NCBI GenBank assembly: GCA_964361095.1 | Contig: CAYHZA010000004.1 | Span: forward strand, 2,236-66,235 | Direction of reading: 5' to 3' | Length of the DNA: 64,000 bases | From: an uncultured Candidatus Saccharibacteria bacterium | GTDB lineage: Bacteria > Patescibacteriota > Minisyncoccia > UBA6257 > 2-01-FULL-56-20 | In this document: positions 1-13,400 of the stretch, one piece after another | How positions within the stretch are numbered: the first letter of the stretch is position 1 | Layout: each line of letters starts with the position of its first letter | Translations under genes and position numbers: made by a program | The notes under the pieces: model-generated | Databases searched by the model: none | What the model was told of the DNA's origin: nothing | The model's input: the letters and a program-made list of their open reading frames with translations, nothing else

Positions 1-339
1 ACTCGTCCTGTTGTTATTCACGAAAATAAGGGTGGCAATTTAGGAATACATCCTTTTTCCACCGCTTTGCGCGCCAACGGCTCATATAACTACGTTACTG
101 TGAATGGCGAACGCCGACTTACTCCGAGGGAGATGTTGCGCTTACAGGGTTATCCGGACACATTCAAAATGGTTGTGCCCGACACGCAGGTTAGGAAACA
201 GGCTGGCAATAGCGTAGTTATTCCAAAGATTGAAGCCGTTGCACAAGCAATGGTTCAAGCAATGAGCCAAAAACCGCAACGCAAGCCGGTTCAGTCCGAT
301 TTATTCGCAACAGAAGAAAAAATATATGCGCACAAATAA
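1..339 (+). CDS. DNA (cytosine-5)-methyltransferase, C-terminal fragment (5' end lies outside window)
   Basis: Frame 1 is open from nt 1 with no stop. The translation ...GERRLTPREMLRLQGYPDTF...QAGNSVVIP carries the C-terminal C5-MTase motifs (R-x-T-x-RE-x-x-RLQGFPD and Q-x-GNSV). Confidence 0.8.
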   Translation, partial: TRPVVIHENKGGNLGIHPFSTALRANGSYNYVTVNGERRLTPREMLRLQGYPDTFKMVVPDTQVRKQAGNSVVIPKIEAVAQAMVQAMSQKPQRKPVQSDLFATEEKIYAHK

Positions 340-1396
340 TAACTTATCAAAGAAAGCGTTGGATTTGGTAATTCGCAAATCGCGCGTTCATTTGTATAAA
401 CCAATCCAGATTGCCGAAATTTTACATCATCACAGAACAGAACGCGGTTTGGATTTAAGCGATTTGCAAGCATATCGCAATATTTCCAAGCGTTGGCGTG
501 ATGAAGTGTCTTTGCTTTTGGTTGGACGACGAAGCACCTCAAGTCAAAAGTATCAAGACAATGTTTTTGAAGCCAACGCCATGCCGCCCGAACTGCTTGC
601 AAAACTCGGCGAGATAAACAAGAAAAGCAAAGGGGTCGTTGAGGCATACATCTACAAAGCTTTAGAAGCGCGTCTCTCGTCCGTTCGAGAAGTTGAAGAT
701 TATATAAGAAAATCAACACCGGACACTTTTGATCTCAAAAAGCTAGTTTCTATTTTCCAAACTACGCCGGGTTTACGTCGTAGCGTAGATAAAATGTACG
801 AAATTTTGATTTATGCTCTTTTTACGACAATCGTCCGCGCGTTGAAAGCGCAAGTAACTTTGGAAATTGGAAATAAAGACAAAGAAATTTTGAAGGACTT
901 TGAACGATTTATAAAAATGGTTCTTGGTATTGACGCAAAACAAACACGACTTGTTTCGCCCGCAGCACTGTATCGCGTTGGCGTTACAAATGCCTCGGAT
1001 AGAGGTTTGGACATCTGGGCTAACTTTGGCCCGGCAATTCAAGTTAAACACCTTACTCTTACGCCGGAACTTATGGAGGACATCGCAGGCGACATAACTT
1101 CCGACAGAATTGTGATTGTTTGTATTGATACCGAGCGAGAAACGATTGAGGCATTGCTCAAACAAGTCGGGTGGAGCGAACGAATACAGGGCGTCATTAC
1201 CATTAACGACTTGGATGATTGGTACAAACTTTGTTTGAGCAAAAAATACAGAGCTAATCTCGACGCAAAATTATTGCAAGATGTAGGACGAGAATTTGCC
1301 GCGGAATTTCCGTCAAGCAAAGAAATCGCGCCGTTTATGGCAAAACGTGGGTATGACAAAATCGTCATGCCCCCTGATTGGCAAATTCAAATCTAA
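326..1396 (+). CDS. putative type II restriction endonuclease (uncharacterised family)
   Basis: 356-aa ORF overlapping the MTase 3' end by 14 nt and followed 8 nt later by vsr. The MTase-REase-Vsr gene order is typical of m5C restriction-modification systems. No catalytic motif was recognised by eye. Confidence 0.4.
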   Translation: MRTNNNLSKKALDLVIRKSRVHLYKPIQIAEILHHHRTERGLDLSDLQAYRNISKRWRDEVSLLLVGRRSTSSQKYQDNVFEANAMPPELLAKLGEINKKSKGVVEAYIYKALEARLSSVREVEDYIRKSTPDTFDLKKLVSIFQTTPGLRRSVDKMYEILIYALFTTIVRALKAQVTLEIGNKDKEILKDFERFIKMVLGIDAKQTRLVSPAALYRVGVTNASDRGLDIWANFGPAIQVKHLTLTPELMEDIAGDITSDRIVIVCIDTERETIEALLKQVGWSERIQGVITINDLDDWYKLCLSKKYRANLDAKLLQDVGREFAAEFPSSKEIAPFMAKRGYDKIVMPPDWQIQI

Positions 1397-1403
1397 CGTA
1401 TGT

Positions 1404-1805
1404 ATGGACACTGTTTCAAAACAAAAGCGAAGCGAAATAATGTCTCGGATAAAAAGCCGAGACAGCAAAATTGAGACACTCTTTCGCAAAGAACTTTGGA
1501 AATTAGGATTTCGTTATCGCAAAAACTCTGGCAAATATTTTGGGAAGCCGGATATTGTTTTAAAACAACACAAAACCGTCGTTTTTATTGATTCCTGTTT
1601 CTGGCATGGTTGCAAAAGACATTGTCGCATTCCGACTGTTCGTAAAAGTTACTGGACGCAGAAAATCGCACGGAATGTAACGAGGGATAAGGAGGTTACA
1701 AAGCACTATAAGAAGCGGGGGTGGAAAATTTTTAGAATTTGGGAGCACAAATTAACAATGGGAATGCCAAAAGTGCTAAAAATTGTCCAATCCGAGCTCA
1801 AGTAG
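1404..1805 (+). CDS. vsr: very short patch repair (Vsr) endonuclease
   Basis: Motif FIDSCFWHGC, the signature Vsr F-x-D-G-C-F-W-H-x-H/C region. The ATG at 1404 follows the upstream stop at 1394-1396, giving a ~133-aa product. Confidence 0.85.
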   Translation: MDTVSKQKRSEIMSRIKSRDSKIETLFRKELWKLGFRYRKNSGKYFGKPDIVLKQHKTVVFIDSCFWHGCKRHCRIPTVRKSYWTQKIARNVTRDKEVTKHYKKRGWKIFRIWEHKLTMGMPKVLKIVQSELK

Positions 1806-1861
1806 CTTATCCAAAGCGAAAAGTCCTTGACTCCACAAAGATTGTGGAGTAGTATTGAAAT

Positions 1862-2461
1862 ATGACGAAGAATCAGGAAAATCTCATACGCTTTATAGCC
1901 GACTACAGGGTTAAGTACGGTGCCTCGCCTACGCTTCAGGAAATGGTGGCAGGCATTCATGTTTCTGACCATAAATCTGTAAGCGGCATTATTTCCGCCC
2001 TTACAAAACAAGGATTTTTAGAGAAAGGCAAGCAAAAAACCAGGTCGATTCTCTTGACCGATAAGGCATTTGAGTTGCTTGGTATTCCGCTTTTCCGTCG
2101 TCAACAACTGGAAGAATTTAACTACTCCTTCCGACAAATGTCGCCTGCCAGCAGTGGCCTAATTACCTCTCCCACTCCAGATTATATAAGGCACGGCGAA
2201 CAGTCTATAAAAACTGATATAAAAACTGACGGGACAAATTTAACTAATGATTTACGAACAGTCGTAGGAAATACTGTGGCCGGTATTGCAACCAAAATAT
2301 ATGCGAATGAAGAAGCGGGAGCAATTTTTAGCTGGGCATTGCTACTGGGCGGGCTAACCTGGGCAAACACCGGCATAATCGGAAACGGAACGAGTGCCCT
2401 TATTTGGACAGCAGTCGAAGCCGTAATAATCAAATTTTTAAGTAAAAAAATAACACTATGA
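1862..2461 (+). CDS. LexA-type winged-helix DNA-binding protein without S24 peptidase domain
   Basis: The N-terminal ~75 aa (NLIRFIADYRVKYGASPTLQEMVAGIHVSDHKSVSGIISALTKQGFLEKGKQKTRSILLT) align to the LexA N-terminal DNA-binding domain. The C-terminal ~90 aa is Gly/Ala-rich and hydrophobic (WALLLGGLTWANTGIIGNG) and has no Ser-Lys peptidase motifs. The stop overlaps the next start as ATGA. Confidence 0.6.
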   Translation: MTKNQENLIRFIADYRVKYGASPTLQEMVAGIHVSDHKSVSGIISALTKQGFLEKGKQKTRSILLTDKAFELLGIPLFRRQQLEEFNYSFRQMSPASSGLITSPTPDYIRHGEQSIKTDIKTDGTNLTNDLRTVVGNTVAGIATKIYANEEAGAIFSWALLLGGLTWANTGIIGNGTSALIWTAVEAVIIKFLSKKITL

Positions 2462-3411
2462 GTCTTGGAATTAACACGACAACGCCGGAAGGAATCGTTT
2501 TAGCCGCCGACAGTCGGCAGTCATATCGTAACCAAAAAGGTATGAGCAGAATCGGCTCCGATTCTGCGTCAAAAGTTTTCAAGATAAATGACAGGGCGGG
2601 TTTGATAGTTGCGGGGCTAGCATTTTTGCCGGAAAATGGCGTCTTGAAAAACATCAGCAGGTTTGTGGAAGAATTTAAGAAAAGTATTGAGACTGAAAAA
2701 ATAACAATCCTAGAAACCGCCCAAAAATTGAAAGATTTTTTTGAAGAAAAATATCAATACAAAGACCAGCTAAAAATTCTCCCTAATCAAATAAAAGCGG
2801 ATTTGGAACGACAAGGCTGTCAAATAATAGAGATTAAAGAAGAAAGCGGTCATGTTAAGTTTAAGTTTAAGGATCCTAAGGGAATTCAAAAAGAAGGGAT
2901 AGCGGGCGTAGAGCAGTTGCAGTTTATTGTCGCCGGTTACAATCAAGATAAATCGCATCAAGTTGCGATGGTGTATATTCCTGGCAATGTTGAGCTCAAG
3001 AGAGATAGCGCAAAGCGAGGGCAAGAATATGGTGCCAGTTGGATAGGTCAGATTGATGTGGTATCAAGAATCGTTCTTGGTTTTGATGGACGTATTGGCA
3101 ATTTGCCGGCCATGCAAAAAATGGCTTCCGATATGGGTGCCCAAGAGGTTCAAAAACAATTGAGGAGTTTGGAATACGTCATTCAGTGGGGAACCATGAC
3201 TTTGCAGGACGGTATTGATTTTAGTACATTAGCAATCGGAACAACTACGGCCATTCAAAGATTTTCTGATGGTATCGCGGGCGACCCTGGCGATATGCCT
3301 GGCGTAGGTGGCTCGATTGACGTTGCCGTTATAACGCCGGAAAAGGGATTTGTATGGATTGCAAAGAAAAATTTGAAAGTTGGAGATAAAGAGGTAGATT
3401 TAGAAAAATAG
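2458..3411 (+). CDS. proteasome-beta-like Ntn-hydrolase family protein
   Basis: N-terminus GINTTTPEGIVLAADSRQS...SKVFKINDRAGLIVAG resembles the proteasome/HslV beta-subunit active-site region (Thr nucleophile, AADxR, K-x-x-x-I-x-D...AG). At 317 aa it is longer than canonical beta subunits. Confidence 0.5.
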   Translation: MSLGINTTTPEGIVLAADSRQSYRNQKGMSRIGSDSASKVFKINDRAGLIVAGLAFLPENGVLKNISRFVEEFKKSIETEKITILETAQKLKDFFEEKYQYKDQLKILPNQIKADLERQGCQIIEIKEESGHVKFKFKDPKGIQKEGIAGVEQLQFIVAGYNQDKSHQVAMVYIPGNVELKRDSAKRGQEYGASWIGQIDVVSRIVLGFDGRIGNLPAMQKMASDMGAQEVQKQLRSLEYVIQWGTMTLQDGIDFSTLAIGTTTAIQRFSDGIAGDPGDMPGVGGSIDVAVITPEKGFVWIAKKNLKVGDKEVDLEK

Positions 3412-3541
3412 CCGCCGCCAAAAATCCCGTTCGTCCGAGCGAGGGTGCGGCGGAAAAAAAGGGGGGGTGAGGGGGCAGCTTCCTTAGTTCCGCTCAAAGA
3501 ATGCTCGAGCGAAGTTGTATAATTCTACGATATTAAATAAA

Positions 3542-3570
3542 TTGACAAAAACAATGAATCAGCTACAATA
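3542..3570 (+). promoter_or_regulatory. sigma70-like promoter (TTGACA-N16-TACAAT) driving the riboswitch
   Basis: TTGACA at 3542-3547 and TACAAT at 3564-3569. Confidence 0.5.
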
Positions 3571-3589
3571 AACTTACAACTGAATAAGC

Positions 3590-3695
3590 AGTTATCAAGA
3601 GCGTGGCGAGAGCAACTGGCTCAATGACCCACCGGCAACCCTCGGAAACGAGAAGGTGCCAAATCCAGCCCCAACAGGGGAAAGATGATAGTCGT
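3590..3695 (+). ncRNA. SAM-I (S-box) riboswitch aptamer
   Basis: UUAUCAAGAG...GUGGCGAGAGCAACUGGCUCAAUGACCCACC...GGCAACC-cucgGAAAcgag-GGUGCCAAAUCCAGCcccaacagggGAAAGAUGAUAG matches the S-box consensus P1-P4, including the GNRA-capped P3 and the AAAUCC and AGAUGA elements. Confidence 0.7.
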
Positions 3696-3697
3696 TA

Positions 3698-3731
3698 CTC
3701 TTTCCTATGTTTCGGAAGGAGTTTTTTATTT
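3698..3731 (+). terminator. riboswitch expression-platform intrinsic terminator
   Basis: Stem CTCTTTCC/GGAAGGAG with an 8-nt loop, followed by TTTTTTATTTAT. Confidence 0.6.
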
Positions 3732-3748
3732 ATAGGCGAATAAATAAA

Positions 3749-4000
3749 ATGATCGAAATTTCAGAAAAAGATATAGATAAATACAAGTTCATAGGTAGCG
3801 CAGGGGGCTTCTCTTTGGGGTTTTGTGTTTACCTTGCACACAGGCACACACCGAACTTTTTTAATCGTGTAGTCGGCTATCGCATTGAAGAGCGTGGCAT
3901 CGGCGAAATGATGAGCGAAGCTGCTCGAAAAGTAGGACTTCCCAAAGAAAAGCAGAAGTATATAACCATCAGTTTCTACGAGGAGAAAACTATTAACTAA
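3749..4000 (+). CDS. hypothetical protein (riboswitch-controlled)
   Basis: ORF 3707-4000 trimmed to the first ATG after the terminator. No recognisable motifs. Confidence 0.35.
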   Translation: MIEISEKDIDKYKFIGSAGGFSLGFCVYLAHRHTPNFFNRVVGYRIEERGIGEMMSEAARKVGLPKEKQKYITISFYEEKTIN

Positions 4001-4009
4001 AACAAATTT

Positions 4010-4402
4010 ATGAACAACCACGACTTTATCAGTTTCGTGCCATATCCGCTAGAGATAAAGGAGCGGCCAGAGTTAGATGTTTTTCCGTTGAATGTTCTAT
4101 TTGCTAAACTCGGAATAAGGAACGGTAAAAATGCCATGGGTACCGCCTTATATGAGCCAAACTTGGAATCGTTTAAACGAGAGGAAAATAAATGTTCTAT
4201 AGAGTATTACAATATTCATGGGGGCAAGAGCCGGCTGGTAATTGAGTACGATATGCTGAGGAAAAGTTATCATGGCGAAAAAGTAGTAAATGGAGAATTG
4301 GCAGGGATGGCTTCCGGTCCAGAATGGAAGATGTTTTTCGTCCACTTCACGATGTTGGGATTAACTAAAGGGGAGATGTGTGAATTTGAAGATATTGGTT
4401 AA
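4010..4402 (+). CDS. hypothetical protein (riboswitch-controlled)
   Basis: 130-aa ORF 9 nt after the preceding stop, same strand, no intervening terminator. No recognisable motifs. Confidence 0.4.
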   Translation: MNNHDFISFVPYPLEIKERPELDVFPLNVLFAKLGIRNGKNAMGTALYEPNLESFKREENKCSIEYYNIHGGKSRLVIEYDMLRKSYHGEKVVNGELAGMASGPEWKMFFVHFTMLGLTKGEMCEFEDIG

Positions 4403-4447
4403 TTTTGATAATCTATTTTTATTATCCACGCCCCCATTTTTCCACCC

Positions 4448-5074
4448 ATGACCAAAAAGGAACTTTTGGAACAATTAGAAAAAGAAATAGCCGCGGATGT
4501 CTCGCTTCAGCTTCGGGAGTCAAATTTGGTTTTTGGCGAGGGGAATCCCGATTGCGATGTTTTGTTTATTGGTGAAGCCCCGGGATTTCACGAAAACCAA
4601 CTGAAGCGTCCCTTCGTCGGACGTGGCGGCCAACTGCTCGATCAATGCATCACAATGATCGGCTGGAAGCGCGAGGATGTTTACATTACAAATATTGTGA
4701 AGCGCCGCCCGCCGGAGAATCGCGACCCCTTGCCGGAGGAAATTGAATCCTATAAGCCCTACCTCACGCGGCAGATAGAAATTATCGATCCCAAGGTAAT
4801 CGTACCCCTCGGACGTTTCGCGATGAATTATTTTCTGCCGGAGGCAAAGATTTCGCGTGATCAGGGCACGGCCTTTCGCGTGGACGGGCGTCTTGTGGTG
4901 CCGGTTTTCCATCCCGCCGCCGCGCTCCGAGGAACGGGGGTCTTAAATGAGTTCAAAGAAAGCTTCAAAAAGCTTCCGAAGATTATTTCAGGAGATGGTT
5001 TGCCCAAAGAAATCGCACCGGCGTTTCCCGCATCGCGCAAGGATAATCCTCCGCCCCAGGCGAAGCTTTTTTGA
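4448..5074 (+). CDS. uracil-DNA glycosylase, family 4
   Basis: GEGNPDCDVLFIGEAPGFHENQLKRPFVGRGGQLL matches the family-4 UDG motifs (GE-G-x-x-A-x-x-M-x-V-GEAPG, PFVG-x-AG-x-LL). HPAA near the C-terminus matches the H-P-S motif region. Confidence 0.85.
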   Translation: MTKKELLEQLEKEIAADVSLQLRESNLVFGEGNPDCDVLFIGEAPGFHENQLKRPFVGRGGQLLDQCITMIGWKREDVYITNIVKRRPPENRDPLPEEIESYKPYLTRQIEIIDPKVIVPLGRFAMNYFLPEAKISRDQGTAFRVDGRLVVPVFHPAAALRGTGVLNEFKESFKKLPKIISGDGLPKEIAPAFPASRKDNPPPQAKLF

Positions 5075-5125
5075 TTCGTCTTTTTCTCCTTCGCTTCGGG
5101 GTTTTTCAGATGTATAATAGAGGGA

Positions 5126-5500
5126 ATGAATTTCGCTCCAACGTATTTGCTCGGCCGCTTCTTCTATCGAATTTACGATTTTCTGCATCATTGGTATTTT
5201 GACGGTTCTCGGGCGTTCTTCCACCGTTTTGTGGCCGTTCTCGAGGTATTTGAACGGATCTTCGCGGTAGGAATGACGGCAAGATTTTTTTTCCATCCGC
5301 TCTATGGAGATTACACCTTGGTCGGAAGAATTTTGGGTTTTATTTTCCGGTCGTGCCGCATCGCAATCGGTCTTTTTGTGTACATAATCCTTCTCGCGAT
5401 CTTTCTTTTCCTGTACGCGATTTGGCTTTCGTTCCCCGCCATCCTTGTTTTTTATGCCGTTTTGAACTTTGTTAAGCCTTCATCACTCCCCGTCTTATAG
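5126..5500 (+). CDS. hypothetical membrane protein
   Basis: 124-aa ORF with a hydrophobic C-terminal half, ending 18 nt before the Clp-like gene. It competes with an antisense ORF, so the call is weak. Confidence 0.3.
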   Translation: MNFAPTYLLGRFFYRIYDFLHHWYFDGSRAFFHRFVAVLEVFERIFAVGMTARFFFHPLYGDYTLVGRILGFIFRSCRIAIGLFVYIILLAIFLFLYAIWLSFPAILVFYAVLNFVKPSSLPVL

Positions 5501-5517
5501 ATTATGTACCTATCGCT

Positions 5518-8046
5518 ATGACGCCTAAAACATACGAACTGTACTTTGATGATCCACGTCTTCGGATGACGATTGGGGGCAGGTTTCTCGTACGGGTCGT
5601 AAGTTACGTATCTTATTTATTTATCGTTGCCGCATTTTTCACGCTCTTTTTTTCGGGGATTCGCCCGCTTCAGTCTTTAGGCGCCTTGATCGCGCTTTTT
5701 TTGATCGACTACTTCCTCCATTTCCGGGAAGCCGATAGTCATCTCACCGAGCTTCCTTCCGGGGAGGCTTTGGTGAACGCGGCGCGGTATCTTTCGCCTG
5801 CCGCTTTTTCGCACATTGAGCACGCGTACCAGAGAAGCTCGTTCTCTCGTGGAAATTTTTTTGTAGAACTCGCGGTGCAGCTTTTGGGCGTACGCGAGAT
5901 CCGTGAAGGAATCAATCGTCTTGATGTGAAGCCCACTGAGTTCAAAGAAAAGGCGGAAGAACTTCTCCGCGCTGAAGACAATCGGGAGAAGATCACCAAA
6001 GACGAACGGCGGGCGAAGGTTGCGCTTCTCGGCACGCGCGCGTTTACGCAGGCGCTTCGGAGCGAGCGTCGGTTTGTCGGGATCTCTGATGTATTCTCCG
6101 CGCTTTCGCTGGTCGGAGATCCTTTGATCGATCGGCTTTTTAATGTTTTTGCGATCGAGAGCGGGGATTTGGAGCGCGCTTTGATTTTAAGCGCAGAACG
6201 GAAGCCCTTTGGCATTTTTTTCCGGCTTCCCAGAACGATAGGAAGTTTTATTTTTGAATCGTACCGTTCCTCGCGTCACCGCGTAGTGAATCGCGCGTGG
6301 ACATCCCGCCCGACTCCCACGCTTGACCAGTTCAGCACGGACTTCACCGATCTCGCGCGTCGCGGGGAGATTGGGTTTTTAATTGGGCACAAGGCGGAAT
6401 ACGAGCGCATGACGGATGTGCTCTCGCGCGCGACGAATCCGAATGCGCTTCTCGTGGGAGAGGTGGGGGTCGGGAAAGAAACCATGATCGCTCATCTCGC
6501 GCTTGATCTTGTAAAAGACAGGGTACCTGCCGCGCTTTTTGATAAGCGGCTTGTGGGGTTGCATCTGGGAACGCTTGTTGCCGGCGCTCCGCCGGACGAG
6601 CTCCAGAAGCGGCTTACGCGGATTGTCCAAGAGATCTCGCTTGCCGGCAATGTGATTCTTTATATTCAAGATATTCACAATCTGGTTAAAACTTCGGGTT
6701 CCGCCTATCTTTCCGCCGCGGATGCTCTGATGCCCATTATTATGAACAGTGCTTTTCCCGTTGTGGGGACGACGTATCCGAGGGAGTTCAAAGAGTTTCT
6801 CGAACCGAGGACGGATGTCGCGGGAGTGTTCGAAGTCTTGAACGTCAACGAGCTTTCCGAAGGAGAGGCCGAAGAGGTACTTGCCTATGAGACGCTTCTT
6901 ATGGAGAAAAAGGCGAATGTTATCGTGAGTTTCGGAGCGATCAAGCAAGCGGTATCTCTCGCGAAAAAATATTTCCGCGCGAAGCTCTTGCCCTCGAGCG
7001 CCGAAGAACTTTTGCGGGACGCGGTAAGCGAGGCGGCGCGGCGCGGGGAGAATACCGTGAACGCGGAGAGCGTCATCCGCGTTGCCGAGACGAAGGTAAA
7101 TATTCCGCTTCATACTGCAGACGCCACCGAAGCGGACACGCTTTTGAATATGGAAGCGATCATCCATAAGCGTTTTGTGGATCAAGACGAGGCGGTAACC
7201 GCCGTTTCGAACGCGCTTAAGGAATATCGCAGTGGTCTGAGCCGTTCCGGAGGTCCCATCGCCACCTTTCTTTTTGTGGGTCCCACGGGAGTCGGAAAAA
7301 CCGAACTCTCAAAAGTTCTTGCCGAGATCCAATTCGGCTCCGAAAAAGCAATGGTTCGTTTTGACATGTCCGAATACCAAGAGAAGGAAAGCATCAACCG
7401 CTTTATCGGATCCTCGGGCGGGCAAACAACGGGCGCGTTGACCGACGCGATTACCGCGCATCCCTACGCCCTCGTTCTTCTCGATGAATTCGAAAAGGCG
7501 CATCCCGATATCCTTAATCTTTTTCTTCAGGTGTTTGATGACGGGCGCCTTACCGACAGTTTGAATCGGACGGTTGATTTTTCGAATACTATCATCGTCG
7601 CGACTTCGAACGCGCATTCCGATATTATCGTACGCGCCATCGAAGAGGGACAGGCGATCGGCGATATCGCCGAATATTTAAAAAAACGCCTGCTGGATGT
7701 TTTTAAGCCGGAACTTTTGAATCGTTTCACGAAGATCATTGTCTTTAAAAACCTCGGTCCGGCGGAACTCGTGAAGATTTCCGAACTGAACCTCCGTTCG
7801 TTCGCGGCGCTTCTTGCGAGGAAGGGCATCGTCTTTGCTTTCGAAGAAGAAGTAGTGCGGAAGATCGCTTCGTTGGGATTCGATCCGGTATTTGGCGCCC
7901 GACCGCTCCGCAGAGTTCTTGAGGAAAAAATTCGTGTTCCGCTCGCGGAAAAGATTTTGCGCAAAGAGGTACGGCGCGGGGAGGGGGTGAGGGCGGTTCT
8001 CAAGGCGGGCGAGATAGTGCTCGTGACCGAAGCGGGCGGTGTGTAG
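5518..8046 (+). CDS. Clp-family double-AAA+ ATPase (ClpA/ClpC-like) with N-terminal membrane anchor
   Basis: The D2 Walker A is FLFVGPTGVGKTEL and Walker B is LLDEFEKAH, with the C-terminal GARPLRRVLEEKI motif. D1 has GEVGVGKETMI and YIQDIHNL. The N-terminal ~70 aa are hydrophobic rather than a Clp_N domain. Confidence 0.8.
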   Translation: MTPKTYELYFDDPRLRMTIGGRFLVRVVSYVSYLFIVAAFFTLFFSGIRPLQSLGALIALFLIDYFLHFREADSHLTELPSGEALVNAARYLSPAAFSHIEHAYQRSSFSRGNFFVELAVQLLGVREIREGINRLDVKPTEFKEKAEELLRAEDNREKITKDERRAKVALLGTRAFTQALRSERRFVGISDVFSALSLVGDPLIDRLFNVFAIESGDLERALILSAERKPFGIFFRLPRTIGSFIFESYRSSRHRVVNRAWTSRPTPTLDQFSTDFTDLARRGEIGFLIGHKAEYERMTDVLSRATNPNALLVGEVGVGKETMIAHLALDLVKDRVPAALFDKRLVGLHLGTLVAGAPPDELQKRLTRIVQEISLAGNVILYIQDIHNLVKTSGSAYLSAADALMPIIMNSAFPVVGTTYPREFKEFLEPRTDVAGVFEVLNVNELSEGEAEEVLAYETLLMEKKANVIVSFGAIKQAVSLAKKYFRAKLLPSSAEELLRDAVSEAARRGENTVNAESVIRVAETKVNIPLHTADATEADTLLNMEAIIHKRFVDQDEAVTAVSNALKEYRSGLSRSGGPIATFLFVGPTGVGKTELSKVLAEIQFGSEKAMVRFDMSEYQEKESINRFIGSSGGQTTGALTDAITAHPYALVLLDEFEKAHPDILNLFLQVFDDGRLTDSLNRTVDFSNTIIVATSNAHSDIIVRAIEEGQAIGDIAEYLKKRLLDVFKPELLNRFTKIIVFKNLGPAELVKISELNLRSFAALLARKGIVFAFEEEVVRKIASLGFDPVFGARPLRRVLEEKIRVPLAEKILRKEVRRGEGVRAVLKAGEIVLVTEAGGV

Positions 8047-8061
8047 TAGAATAAGAAATAT

Positions 8062-8718
8062 ATGAAGATACGAGTCAATATCAATCTCCAGATCGGACGC
8101 GTCGTGAAGTATTTTATTTTAGTTGACCTTTTTTTGCTCGCGGGCTGGGGGCTTATCGACCCCATTTTTTCCATTTTTATCGTGGAGAATATACCCGGGG
8201 CGACCGTGGTTACCGTAGGCGCGGTGGCGGGAATGTATTGGATCCTCAAATCGGCGATCCAATTGCCTATTGCGAAATATCTCGATCGGACGCCGGGCGA
8301 AAAAGATGATTTCTACTGCCTCATCCTCGGACTTCTCGTGGTTTCCGCCTCCGCGTTCGGATTCGTCTTGGTGCGTGAGATTTGGCAGTTGTATCTCGTC
8401 CAAGCCATTAAGTCCCTTGGATTCGCTCTCTACGCCGCCTCGTGGCCCACTATCTTTTCCCGACATCTCGATAAAGAGAAGGTGTCGTTTGACTGGGCGC
8501 TCGACTCGACCGCGGTGAGTCTTTCCGCCGGAGCGAGTGGATTTTTGGGAGGCGTTATAGCGAATAGCTTCGGTTTTCCCACTGTTTTTCTCGCGGGCGC
8601 GTTCTTCTCCTTCGTTTCGGCGCTTGTTTTGCTCGCGGTTCCCGACCTGGTGCTTCCCAAGGTGAGCAAGTCCGAGTCGCTTATCAAGGATCATGGTCCG
8701 GTGAATCTCGGGAGATAA
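8062..8718 (+). CDS. hypothetical polytopic membrane protein
   Basis: 218-aa ORF with about 6 predicted hydrophobic helices. Confidence 0.5.
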   Translation: MKIRVNINLQIGRVVKYFILVDLFLLAGWGLIDPIFSIFIVENIPGATVVTVGAVAGMYWILKSAIQLPIAKYLDRTPGEKDDFYCLILGLLVVSASAFGFVLVREIWQLYLVQAIKSLGFALYAASWPTIFSRHLDKEKVSFDWALDSTAVSLSAGASGFLGGVIANSFGFPTVFLAGAFFSFVSALVLLAVPDLVLPKVSKSESLIKDHGPVNLGR

Positions 8719-8759
8719 TCTCCGCTATCCTAGAACGTGTTACAATTCCTGAAATAGTT

Positions 8760-9275
8760 ATGACGGCGCCCATCAAGGAAACAAAAGAACCCCCGAAACT
8801 TCAGCAGAAAATAAAGAAGCAAATAGTTGCGGGATTTGTCGTTTATCGTCGCACGCACGAAGGCACGAAGTTTTTGCTTTTGTATCGGCGGGGGAACTAT
8901 TGGAATTTTCCCAAGGGACATTTTGAAGAAGGAGAGCATGACCTCGATACCGCGCTTCGGGAAACCGAGGAAGAGACGGGACTTAAGCACTCGGATCTGC
9001 GCATCGTTCCGGGATTCCGCACTTTCGAGCGATTTTCTTTCCGCCGCGGCACACAAACAATTCACGACACGGTCATACTCTATCTCGCGGAAACGAAAAA
9101 TCCTCGCATTACCATTTCGCCTCGCGAACACAGCGGGTATGCTTGGTTTTTTTATCAAGACGCTCTCAAGGTTCTCGGAAATAAATACGTCGGCACGAAG
9201 CGAGTTTTGAAACAGGCATATGACTTCATTCACCACAAGGGTCCTCACGGTCGTCGCCCGAATCCCGCGCGGTAA
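8760..9275 (+). CDS. NUDIX hydrolase
   Basis: Nudix box GHFEEGEHDLDTALRETEEETGL (G-x5-E-x7-REUxEExGU). Confidence 0.8.
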   Translation: MTAPIKETKEPPKLQQKIKKQIVAGFVVYRRTHEGTKFLLLYRRGNYWNFPKGHFEEGEHDLDTALRETEEETGLKHSDLRIVPGFRTFERFSFRRGTQTIHDTVILYLAETKNPRITISPREHSGYAWFFYQDALKVLGNKYVGTKRVLKQAYDFIHHKGPHGRRPNPAR

Positions 9276-13078: not shown

Positions 13079-13398
13079 GGGGATGACCGGCTTCGATGGA
13101 AATGCGTCATGAACCGGCGAGCCGAGCGCAGTCTCGTAAATCCTGCAAAATTATTAACTGCCAACTCTAATCGAGTTACAGCTCCAGCGTTCGCTTACGC
13201 GTAACGCAGGACATCGGCTAACTTGTGTCTCTTAGGTTAAATACTGGTGTAATATAAGGAGGCTCGCCAAGCACGTTTCGCTTCGTGATGTGCTCGGCTA
13301 AAAATAGCGAAGCAAAATTCTTGATCCAATCAAGATACGCTCGTAGATAGTTCATCGATAGTATTTTCAGACGGCGGTTCAATTCCGCCCATCTCCAC
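13079..13398 (+). ncRNA. ssrA: tmRNA (SsrA)
   Basis: 5' GGGGATGACCGGCTTCGATGG compares with E. coli GGGGCTGATTCTGGATTCGACGG. The 3' end GACGGCGGTTCAATTCCGCCCATCTCCAC is a tRNA-like T-arm and acceptor. An internal tag ORF GCC AAC ... GCG TAA at 13160-13204 encodes ANSNRVTAPAFAYA*, preceded by CUCGUAAA as in E. coli. smpB lies immediately downstream on the opposite strand. Confidence 0.8.
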
Positions 13399-13400
13399 AA

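Follow-up and report, generated by a model that had tools for sequence, protein, structure and literature searches.

A gene for a LexA-type DNA-binding protein is coupled to the orphan proteasome homologue PMI-3 in a putatively mobile and autoregulated cassette of candidate phyla radiation bacteria

Two overlapping genes in a stretch of 64,000 nucleotides from an uncultured Candidatus Saccharibacteria bacterium (contig CAYHZA010000004.1 of assembly GCA_964361095.1; the whole stretch is called the window in the following) encode a protein with a LexA-type winged helix-turn-helix (wHTH) domain, here termed the partner, and, directly downstream, an N-terminal nucleophile (Ntn) hydrolase of the orphan proteasome homologue family PMI-3. 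While the hydrolase family has already been described, its pairing with a LexA-type repressor is new. The pair is conserved in a PMI-3 sub-clade of the candidate phyla radiation (CPR) type, and promoter, putative operator and both genes are best explained as a mobile two-gene cassette that would regulate itself. A short motif of the partner, KTDGTN, is tentatively proposed as the site at which PMI-3 might cut its own repressor.

The source of the window is a 72-kb contig from a groundwater metagenome. Loci compared with it are labelled with L-numbers (L001, L086 and so forth, with L109 denoting the source contig itself) and homologous proteins with P-numbers. Homologue searches retrieved 1,994 relatives of the hydrolase in one search (805 clusters at 50% identity) and 34 relatives of the partner, so that both open reading frames (ORFs) represent real conserved genes and not chance ORFs. 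The stop codon of the partner gene and the start codon of the hydrolase gene overlap in ctATGAgt (ATG at 2458-2460, TGA at 2459-2461), and the translational coupling which a sequence-only reading of the window had deduced from the ATGA at 2458-2461 is hence present.

The hydrolase is a PMI-3 protein

The closest NCBI homologue of the hydrolase, OGZ26396.1 (P0003; 98% identity over 100% of the query), is the named representative of PMI-3, variant 3 of the 'Proteasome homolog with Multiple Insertions', an orphan family for which 28 sequences were listed in 2021, with a genomic context that gave no hint of a function (Fuchs, Alva & Lupas, Bioinformatics 2021, PMC8665760). Altogether, 22 proteasome homologue families without function and without informative genomic context were described at that time (PMC8665760), and a literature search found no later paper on PMI-3. 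The sequence-only reading had not recognised the pair as a described system, which holds for the pairing alone, the hydrolase being a member of a known family.

The Pfam Proteasome profile (PF00227) is matched just above threshold (22.6 bits, threshold 22.4) by residues 9-55 only, and the same N-terminal part of the profile is matched by 9/10 diverse relatives. In Foldseek, the AlphaFold2 (AF2) model of the hydrolase (predicted local distance difference test score, pLDDT, 75; predicted template modelling score 0.73) has proteasome alpha/beta subunits and Anbu as matches of probability 1.00 (target-normalised template modelling scores 0.5-0.7; 376 PDB chains at E<=1e-3). Equally, comparison of the family profile with the PDB places K39 on Lys33 and GVGGxxDVAVIT on SGGMIDVAVIT of the Thermoplasma acidophilum (T. 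acidophilum) beta subunit. The call of a proteasome-like Ntn hydrolase, which had been made from the letters alone, is correct.

Judged by its sequence, the hydrolase has the predicted proteasome-type catalytic set of Thr1/Ser1, Asp17, Lys33 and the oxyanion-hole Gly47. Among 80 PMI-3 sequences, position 2 is occupied by Ser in 79 and by Thr in one, and D18, K39 and G53 are each found in 80/80. In the distant propeptide-bearing relatives P0215 and P0260, a G|T junction stands where PMI-3 has M1-S2, with an Asp 16 residues later in each; because the two positions coincide, Ser2 may be considered the equivalent of Thr1, the exposure of which would need the removal of Met1 alone. The insertion after the first helices, seen in the AF2 model as extra helices and strands at ~100-150, is a stretch that relatives of ~270 aa lack; long insertions after helices H1/H2 and between H3/H4 are known for PMI-3 (PMC8665760).

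PMI-3 is unusually conserved for its spread, with 57-60% identity between CPR bacteria and Methanobacterium, 34 invariant positions and additional members in Atribacterota, Caldisericota and Omnitrophota. No PMI-3 was found on the viral contigs scanned, which leaves carriage by phages unsupported. Neither PMI-3 nor the partner matches any PADLOC model, and searches of PHROGs gave weak matches to families of unknown function only. Natural fusions of a helix-turn-helix (HTH) domain with PMI were not found among the homologues, the N-terminal extensions of long relatives being signal- or propeptide-like.

The partner combines a LexA-type wHTH with a hydrophobic C-terminus

The match of the partner to LexA_DNA_bind (PF01726) is marginal (E 9.7e-5, 22.5 bits, cut-off 23.7), and TIGR00498 is matched by residues 1-67 alone (E 2.3e-5, 24 bits versus a cut-off of 111). 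Orthologous partners match PF01726 with E 1e-13 and 1e-10, which makes the assignment solid at the family level, and the N-terminal domain of the AF2 model fits the LexA structures 3k2z, 1jhh, 1lea and 3jso with a root mean square deviation of 1.6-1.9 Å over 65-68 residues. An S24 peptidase domain was not found in the partner by Pfam and TIGR00498 profile searches. Since this domain is absent and the TIGR00498 match is limited to the N-terminus, the partner is not a LexA. The sequence-only reading had claimed exactly this combination, a LexA N-terminal wHTH without the S24 autoprotease, and both parts of the claim hold; the remainder of the protein consists of a linker followed by three helices, of which the last two are hydrophobic (Table 1). 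The Kyte-Doolittle maximum over 19 residues amounts to 1.54 in the window partner versus 1.7-2.7 in orthologues, which are scored as transmembrane, and membrane insertion of the hydrophobic tail of the window partner appears borderline.

Outside the wHTH, the sole invariant or near-invariant positions in the partner alignment A2 are T122, D123, G124, T125 and N126 of the KTDGTN motif, located at the C-terminal edge of the predicted disordered linker. Tested with an ungapped position-specific scoring matrix (PSSM) against 745 background ORFs, the linker motif reaches significance in L007, L025 and the closer partner subfamily only, and a gapped hidden Markov model of the C-terminal module of the partner reaches only L001-L005, L007 and L008. 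A [DN]G[TS] motif that had been seen by eye in every partner did not hold up in the same PSSM test. A homology search with the motif module retrieved the known partners and the L025 protein, and nothing else. This protein is encoded by a 124-aa ORF (L025, 3806-4180) with a 1-nt gap to PMI-3, lacks the wHTH and carries GIKTDGTNIYIES, and its motif score is reached by 0/745 background ORFs.

Two side observations concern the surroundings of the motif. Just before it, the window partner has a tandem duplication of four residues, IKTD-IKTD (2210-2233, aa 117-124), which is absent in 17/17 aligned relatives. The gene upstream of the 124-aa ORF of L025 is NrdR-like by eye.

Conservation of the pair

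Among 79 PMI-3 loci of species-representative genomes, 21 have a gene for a LexA-type wHTH protein directly upstream, on the same strand and with a gap of -13 to +16 nt, and all of them belong to the CPR-type PMI-3 sub-clade with ~60% identity or more to the query. Conversely, metagenome contigs found via the partner alone show PMI-3 immediately downstream in 13/13 testable cases, a count that leaves out two contigs ending too early to tell. The co-occurrence in related genomes, on which the sequence-only reading had made the weight of its proposal depend, is thus kept, but confined to this sub-clade.

In the remaining lineages, PMI-3 has other neighbours or none. The Methanobacteriales display a conserved synteny HisF ... 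PMI-3 - Ogg, in which PMI-3 is without partner. In Atribacterota, a protein of 392-397 aa with two N-terminal transmembrane helices and tetratricopeptide repeats (TPR) is encoded upstream of PMI-3 with a 27-nt gap (L036, L042, L046, L048, L059, L071), and in Caldisericota PMI-3 is preceded by the gene of a membrane protein and followed by that of a DUF364 protein. A TPR protein is also encoded 17 nt downstream of a PMI-3 relative of 47% identity (L102, 3786-4517); this makes two independent lineages in which PMI-3 is coupled to a TPR-repeat protein.

A neighbourhood with DNA repair genes has equally been observed. The position of PMI-3 directly upstream of the Ogg-type 8-oxoguanine glycosylase in Methanobacteriales persists at 32-40% PMI-3 identity (L105, 1873-3756; L106, 4001-6003), and in Methanobacterium (L040, L049 and others, ~3700-8050) PMI-3 is also found downstream of the glycosylases Tag and MPG and a 176-aa unknown protein. 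In the window itself, Vsr is encoded upstream and a protein of the uracil-DNA glycosylase (UDG) family downstream of the pair. This link to DNA repair is a real synteny in Methanobacteriales and is not seen among the neighbours of the 21 CPR loci. Two further loci show variations on the LexA theme. In L010, a canonical full-length LexA with wHTH and S24 (2737-3333), 263 nt upstream of PMI-3, replaces the usual partner, and in L027 a divergently oriented 632-aa ORF beside the cassette (1118-3019, minus strand) joins LexA_DNA_bind, Peptidase_S24 and an N6/N4 DNA methyltransferase, either as an odd fusion or as two genes merged by the ORF call.

A putative operator in the promoter of the pair

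The partner gene is preceded by a sigma-70-type promoter (Table 1), and its layout, TTGAC...TA(t/g)(a/t)AT, recurs in orthologous loci. In the window, 6 nt separate the -10 element from the ATG at 1862, and in many loci this distance is 6-8 nt; a leaderless or almost leaderless mRNA is therefore probable. The spacer at 1805-1862 had been pointed out by the sequence-only reading as a place for an operator, and a perfect palindrome has been found there at 1830-1850. This putative operator, which fills the promoter spacer, occurs in a single copy in the 64-kb window, at the promoter of the pair, and a search for extra copies in up to 13 kb of orthologous loci gave one per locus, which speaks against a master-repressor regulon in the sequence covered. 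With its form ACTCCACAA-N3-TTGTGGAGT, it is unlike the classical SOS boxes.

In orthologous loci, a palindrome occupies the corresponding position immediately behind TTGAC, but its sequence differs and tracks the type of partner. L002, L086 and L092 have ACTCCACCA..TGGTGGAGT, L007 and L090 have ACCGTTACT..AGTAACGGT and ACCGCCACT...AGTGGCGGT, L015 has ACCTTAC....GTAAGGT, L032 has TTTACTACA....TGTAGTAAA and L061 has TTACTTGAA.......TTCAAGTAA. Palindromes with arms of at least 9 bp are present in 10/31 partner promoters versus 14/373 control upstream regions of the same loci (Fisher p 1.5e-6), whereby the loci are related, yet at least five palindrome types are independent. Differing palindromes at one and the same position in the promoter argue for autoregulation by way of this putative operator.

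Upstream of the -35 element lies a DnaA-box-like 9-mer. With at most one mismatch, on the plus strand and 18-29 nt upstream of the -35 element, such a 9-mer is found in 14/36 partner loci against a background of ~0.04 per 130 nt, and could, on the basis of its sequence, tie expression to DnaA or the replication status. It is also present in L007, L028, L081, L086, L090 and L094, even amid otherwise unrelated flanks.

A probably mobile cassette and its surroundings

The extent of the transferred unit can be read from blastn similarity to cassettes in unrelated flanks (L081, L082, L084, L085), which starts at 1826/1827, at the -35 element, and ends at 3409-3475; similarity to L001, L081 and L082 stops at 3475. 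Promoter, operator and both genes (~1827-3475) are therewith best explained as a self-contained, horizontally mobile and, as predicted from the sequence, autoregulated two-gene cassette. The region after 3411 was considered as an intrinsic terminator, for which there was no support (folding z-score -0.77, T-run absent). L086 matches the window only over 2431-3424 and combines an operator of the L002 type with a PMI-3 that is 96% and a partner that is 45% identical to those of the window; because of these unequal identities, L086 is a recombination mosaic with its breakpoint at the end of the partner gene.

In about six independent contexts, the upstream neighbour of the cassette is a restriction-modification (R-M) or methyltransferase gene (types I, II, III and N6/N4), with serine recombinase, GIY-YIG or PIF1 genes as other upstream neighbours, and some cassettes directly adjoin the housekeeping genes for a tRNA synthetase, GroEL and YqeY. 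Among 115 neighbouring ORFs of the 21 paired loci, DNA methyltransferases and large serine recombinases are the commonest. The R-M/Vsr islet in which the sequence-only reading had placed the pair exists in the window, and R-M or methyltransferase genes abut the cassette elsewhere too; the HaeII and Vsr genes of the islet are, however, common only to the window and L001.

Upstream of the window start, the source contig encodes the remainder of the C5 methyltransferase and an Xre-type controller gene, which is a 70-aa Xre-type HTH gene (L109, 1449-1661) overlapping the methyltransferase start. Controller (C) proteins of R-M systems are usually encoded at this place, and the HaeII-type system thus has its own regulator. 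Control of the adjacent R-M system by the wHTH of the partner has been ruled out, with the Xre-type C protein on the one hand and cassettes that occur elsewhere without that R-M system on the other.

Downstream of the cassette, a near-consensus promoter and an S-adenosylmethionine (SAM) riboswitch precede two small ORFs without any Pfam, PADLOC or PHROGs match, an unusual cargo for a SAM riboswitch. The GC content of the window is 40-43% over 1 to ~4500 versus 48-54% in the neighbouring ClpB region (4500-9000), and this step points to an acquired islet composed of R-M/Vsr genes, cassette and riboswitch ORFs. The features of the locus are collected in Table 1.

Table 1. Features of the PMI-3 locus and its flanks in window coordinates; protein residues are given as aa
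Feature	Position	Strand	Remarks
C5 DNA methyltransferase C-terminus	1-339	+	flank, outside cassette
HaeII-type endonuclease	326-1396	+	flank, outside cassette; E 7e-126
Vsr	1404-1805	+	flank, outside cassette; E 3e-29
DnaA-box-like 9-mer	1807-1815	+	TTATCCAAA (consensus TTATCCACA); 20 nt upstream of -35
Sigma-70-type promoter	1827-1855	+	-35 TTGACT 1827-1832, 17-nt spacer, -10 TAGTAT 1850-1855; consensus scan 9/12
Putative operator	1830-1850		perfect 9+9 inverted repeat ACTCCACAA-aga-TTGTGGAGT; fills promoter spacer
Partner gene	1862-2461	+	199 aa
LexA-type wHTH	partner aa 1-75
Disordered linker (predicted)	partner aa 88-132		pLDDT <50 in AF2 model
KTDGTN motif	2222-2239, partner aa 121-126	+	C-terminal edge of disordered linker
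Three helices	partner aa 125-146, 150-173, 176-196		AF2; last two hydrophobic
PMI-3 hydrolase gene	2458-3411	+	317 aa
Putative catalytic residues	Ser2 2461-2463; Asp18 2509-2511; Lys39 2572-2574; Gly53
Helical/beta insertion	hydrolase about aa 57-153		after first helices
3' cassette boundary	3412-3475		GC-rich; 7-bp inverted repeat 3412-3418 / 3447-3453
Near-consensus promoter	3542-3569		TTGACA-16-TACAAT
SAM-I riboswitch	3589-3691		71 bits
Two small ORFs after SAM riboswitch	3707-4000; 4010-4402		97 aa; 130 aa
UDG-family gene	4448-5074		downstream of cassette
Transfer-messenger RNA (tmRNA) gene	13079-13400		139 bits, full length

Relation to known systems

The window hydrolase is a member of the PMI-3 family: its fold and its Ser1/Asp17/Lys33/Gly47-type site are those of the family, a long insertion behind the first helices is predicted by the AF2 model, and the distribution over bacteria and Euryarchaeota agrees as well. 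There is no difference at the level of the protein; what is added here are ~2,000 homologues compared with the 28 listed before and the CPR operon with a LexA-type repressor. The partner, on the other hand, resembles LexA in its N-terminal wHTH and in the palindromic putative operator that overlaps its own promoter, and differs from it by the missing S24 peptidase and Ser-Lys dyad and by a C-terminus of linker and hydrophobic helices, so that any cleavage of the partner would need an enzyme acting in trans.

Repressor genes that adjoin the gene of an inactivating protease are found in ImmR/ImmA of ICEBs1, DdrO/IrrE, CapH/CapP and BlaI/BlaR1. In immR-immA, the repressor gene is followed by the protease gene in one autoregulated operon, and BlaI is a winged-helix repressor. 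In these pairs, a Zn metallopeptidase (COG2856 or the BlaR1 sensor domain) serves as the protease, and the repressor mostly possesses an Xre-type HTH. Like ImmR/ImmA, the cassette has a repressor gene and an overlapping gene for a predicted protease behind a promoter-embedded palindrome; unlike ImmR/ImmA, it combines a proteasome-family Ntn hydrolase with a LexA-type wHTH, and can be seen as possibly working in a similar way without being a member.

The target motif of Connectase in MtrA lies between the soluble domain and the C-terminal membrane anchor, and the position of KTDGTN in the partner is alike. Connectase is described as an archaeal monomeric proteasome homologue that is sequence-specific rather than a degradation chamber (PMC7980362). 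Connectase belongs to a different subfamily than PMI-3 and has its insertion at another site (PMC8665760); it is furthermore a ligase/transpeptidase without transcription-factor partner and confined to methanogens. Finally, type II toxin-antitoxin (TA) modules of the Phd/YefM type share with the cassette the operon layout, the predicted autoregulation, a fast-evolving and swappable first gene and the occurrence in island or mobile contexts, and are distinguished from it by PMI-3 standing alone as a stable chromosomal gene in several lineages and by the lack of a match of the pair to any known defence or TA model.

Proposed mechanism and alternative explanations

In the proposed mechanism, the LexA-type repressor, presumably as a dimer, would bind the predicted operator in its own promoter and thereby control both genes, a step that is well supported. 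Well supported at the level of sequence and fold is equally the assignment of the coupled protein to PMI-3, with an intact predicted Ntn set, Ser2 in place of Thr1 and no propeptide. With its large insertion, PMI-3 is unlikely to form a closed proteasome-like ring (PMC8665760), and the enzyme would resemble a specific peptidase rather than a bulk degradation chamber. In a third step, PMI-3 would recognise the KTDGTN exposed in the linker of its partner and cut there, upon which the DNA-binding domain would be separated from the hydrophobic C-terminal anchoring or oligomerising module and repression would be relieved. Such a switch, which the sequence-only reading had already suggested as LexA/S24 logic divided between two polypeptides, would follow the logic of LexA with the protease provided in trans, and its gene order would be that of ImmR/ImmA-type pairs.

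This cleavage of its own repressor by PMI-3 is considered plausible, yet somewhat short of probable, and the more specific version, in which PMI-3 is a sequence-specific Ser peptidase or Connectase-like transpeptidase dedicated to the co-encoded repressor, cut at KTDGTN, within a mobile cassette beside R-M genes, is held to be doubtful. A role as cleavage site is plausible for KTDGTN as the sole conserved element outside the wHTH, which lies in a modelled linker of low confidence and presumably disordered. The motif is kept in the coupled ORF of L025 that has no wHTH, and its G-T bears a resemblance, not more, to the Gly|Thr autoprocessing junction of the propeptide-bearing relatives. The conserved pairing (21/79; 13/13) and the overlapping start and stop codons are in agreement with the proposal. 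Several observations weigh against it. The motif is undetectable in distant partners, the C-termini of which are different, as the ~250-aa soluble domain in L013, L015 and L032, or missing, as in L026, where nothing extends beyond the wHTH; one partner orthologue has Cys at the Gly position of the motif; and the tail of the window partner is only a borderline membrane anchor. Moreover, the active-site region of PMI-3 is equally invariant in the partner-less Methanobacteriales, Atribacterota and Caldisericota, which points to a substrate that all lineages share and not to a CPR-specific repressor.

If no proteolysis takes place between the two proteins, the partner might be a plain local regulator, the wHTH of which represses the operon upon a signal sensed by the variable C-terminus, with the substrates of PMI-3 located elsewhere. 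This explanation, which is possible but rather unlikely, would account for the wHTH as the sole universal feature of the partners, the C-terminus of which varies from a hydrophobic hairpin or a soluble domain to none at all, and for a strongly conserved PMI-3 that stands without partner in the synteny of Methanobacteriales. It fits less well that the partner family is never found apart from PMI-3 (13/13), that translational coupling is tight in 21/21 paired loci and that the motif is kept in an otherwise unconserved disordered linker, in L025 even without a DNA-binding domain. A PMI-3 released from its partner might, alternatively, be a harmful effector as in TA or abortive infection systems, whereby the partner would repress transcription and neutralise the enzyme, for example with KTDGTN as a pseudo-substrate, until loss of the partner under stress or infection frees PMI-3. 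The type II layout (a first gene for a DNA-binding protein, a stop codon overlapping the next start codon, a putative operator within the promoter), the swapping of partners against a conserved second gene (L086) and the wide transfer of the cassette, which is frequently inserted next to large serine recombinases and to R-M or methyltransferase genes (types I, II, III), point in this direction, and in L096 (1986-3140) P0192, a distant PMI relative of 273 aa, is preceded at a distance of 22 nt by the gene of a Phd/YefM-family antitoxin (E 3e-14). As a pattern, however, Phd/YefM upstream of distant PMI relatives was rejected (1/5 only), four of the five distant relatives sampled being stand-alone genes, and the stable archaeal chromosomal synteny of PMI-3 alone is unexpected for a toxin. 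With a partner that is long and has a hydrophobic tail, unlike typical antitoxins, and with the PADLOC search and the viral-contig scan both empty, a TA-like function is unlikely.

Still less credence is given to a mobile-element immunity switch, in which the wHTH would be the master repressor and PMI-3 the anti-repressor of excision or transfer genes such as a serine recombinase, after the example of immR-immA-int of ICEBs1. Large serine recombinases adjoin the pair in L017, L014 and L019 and are 2-3 kb off in L001 and L002, the islet of the window is low in GC compared with its neighbourhood, and an AntA-family gene is near the pair in L107. Against these stand the single operator copy in each locus and in the window, several cassettes beside tRNA synthetase, GroEL and YqeY genes with element genes not in view, and the viral contigs without a PMI-3 match; taken together, this possibility appears remote.

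Implications for PMI-3 and CPR bacteria

The locus gives the first genomic clue to the function of PMI-3, consisting of a dedicated LexA-type partner which is putatively autoregulated and carries a conserved motif in an exposed linker. Even if cleavage is not confirmed, the conserved operon with its co-varying operators would still represent a well-defined regulator-operator pair in CPR bacteria, for which, to our knowledge, very few such pairs are known. If, on the other hand, PMI-3 does cleave its repressor, a function would for the first time be assigned to one of the 22 orphan proteasome homologues, and PMI-3 would be the first prokaryotic proteasome-family enzyme to control a transcription factor by site-specific cleavage, possibly as a new switch triggered by stress or defence. 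Inactivation of a repressor by a partner protease, as in ImmR/ImmA, CapH/CapP and BlaI/BlaR1, would then extend to a completely different protease fold, and PMI-3 might become a new sequence-specific peptidase or ligase tool, as Connectase did.

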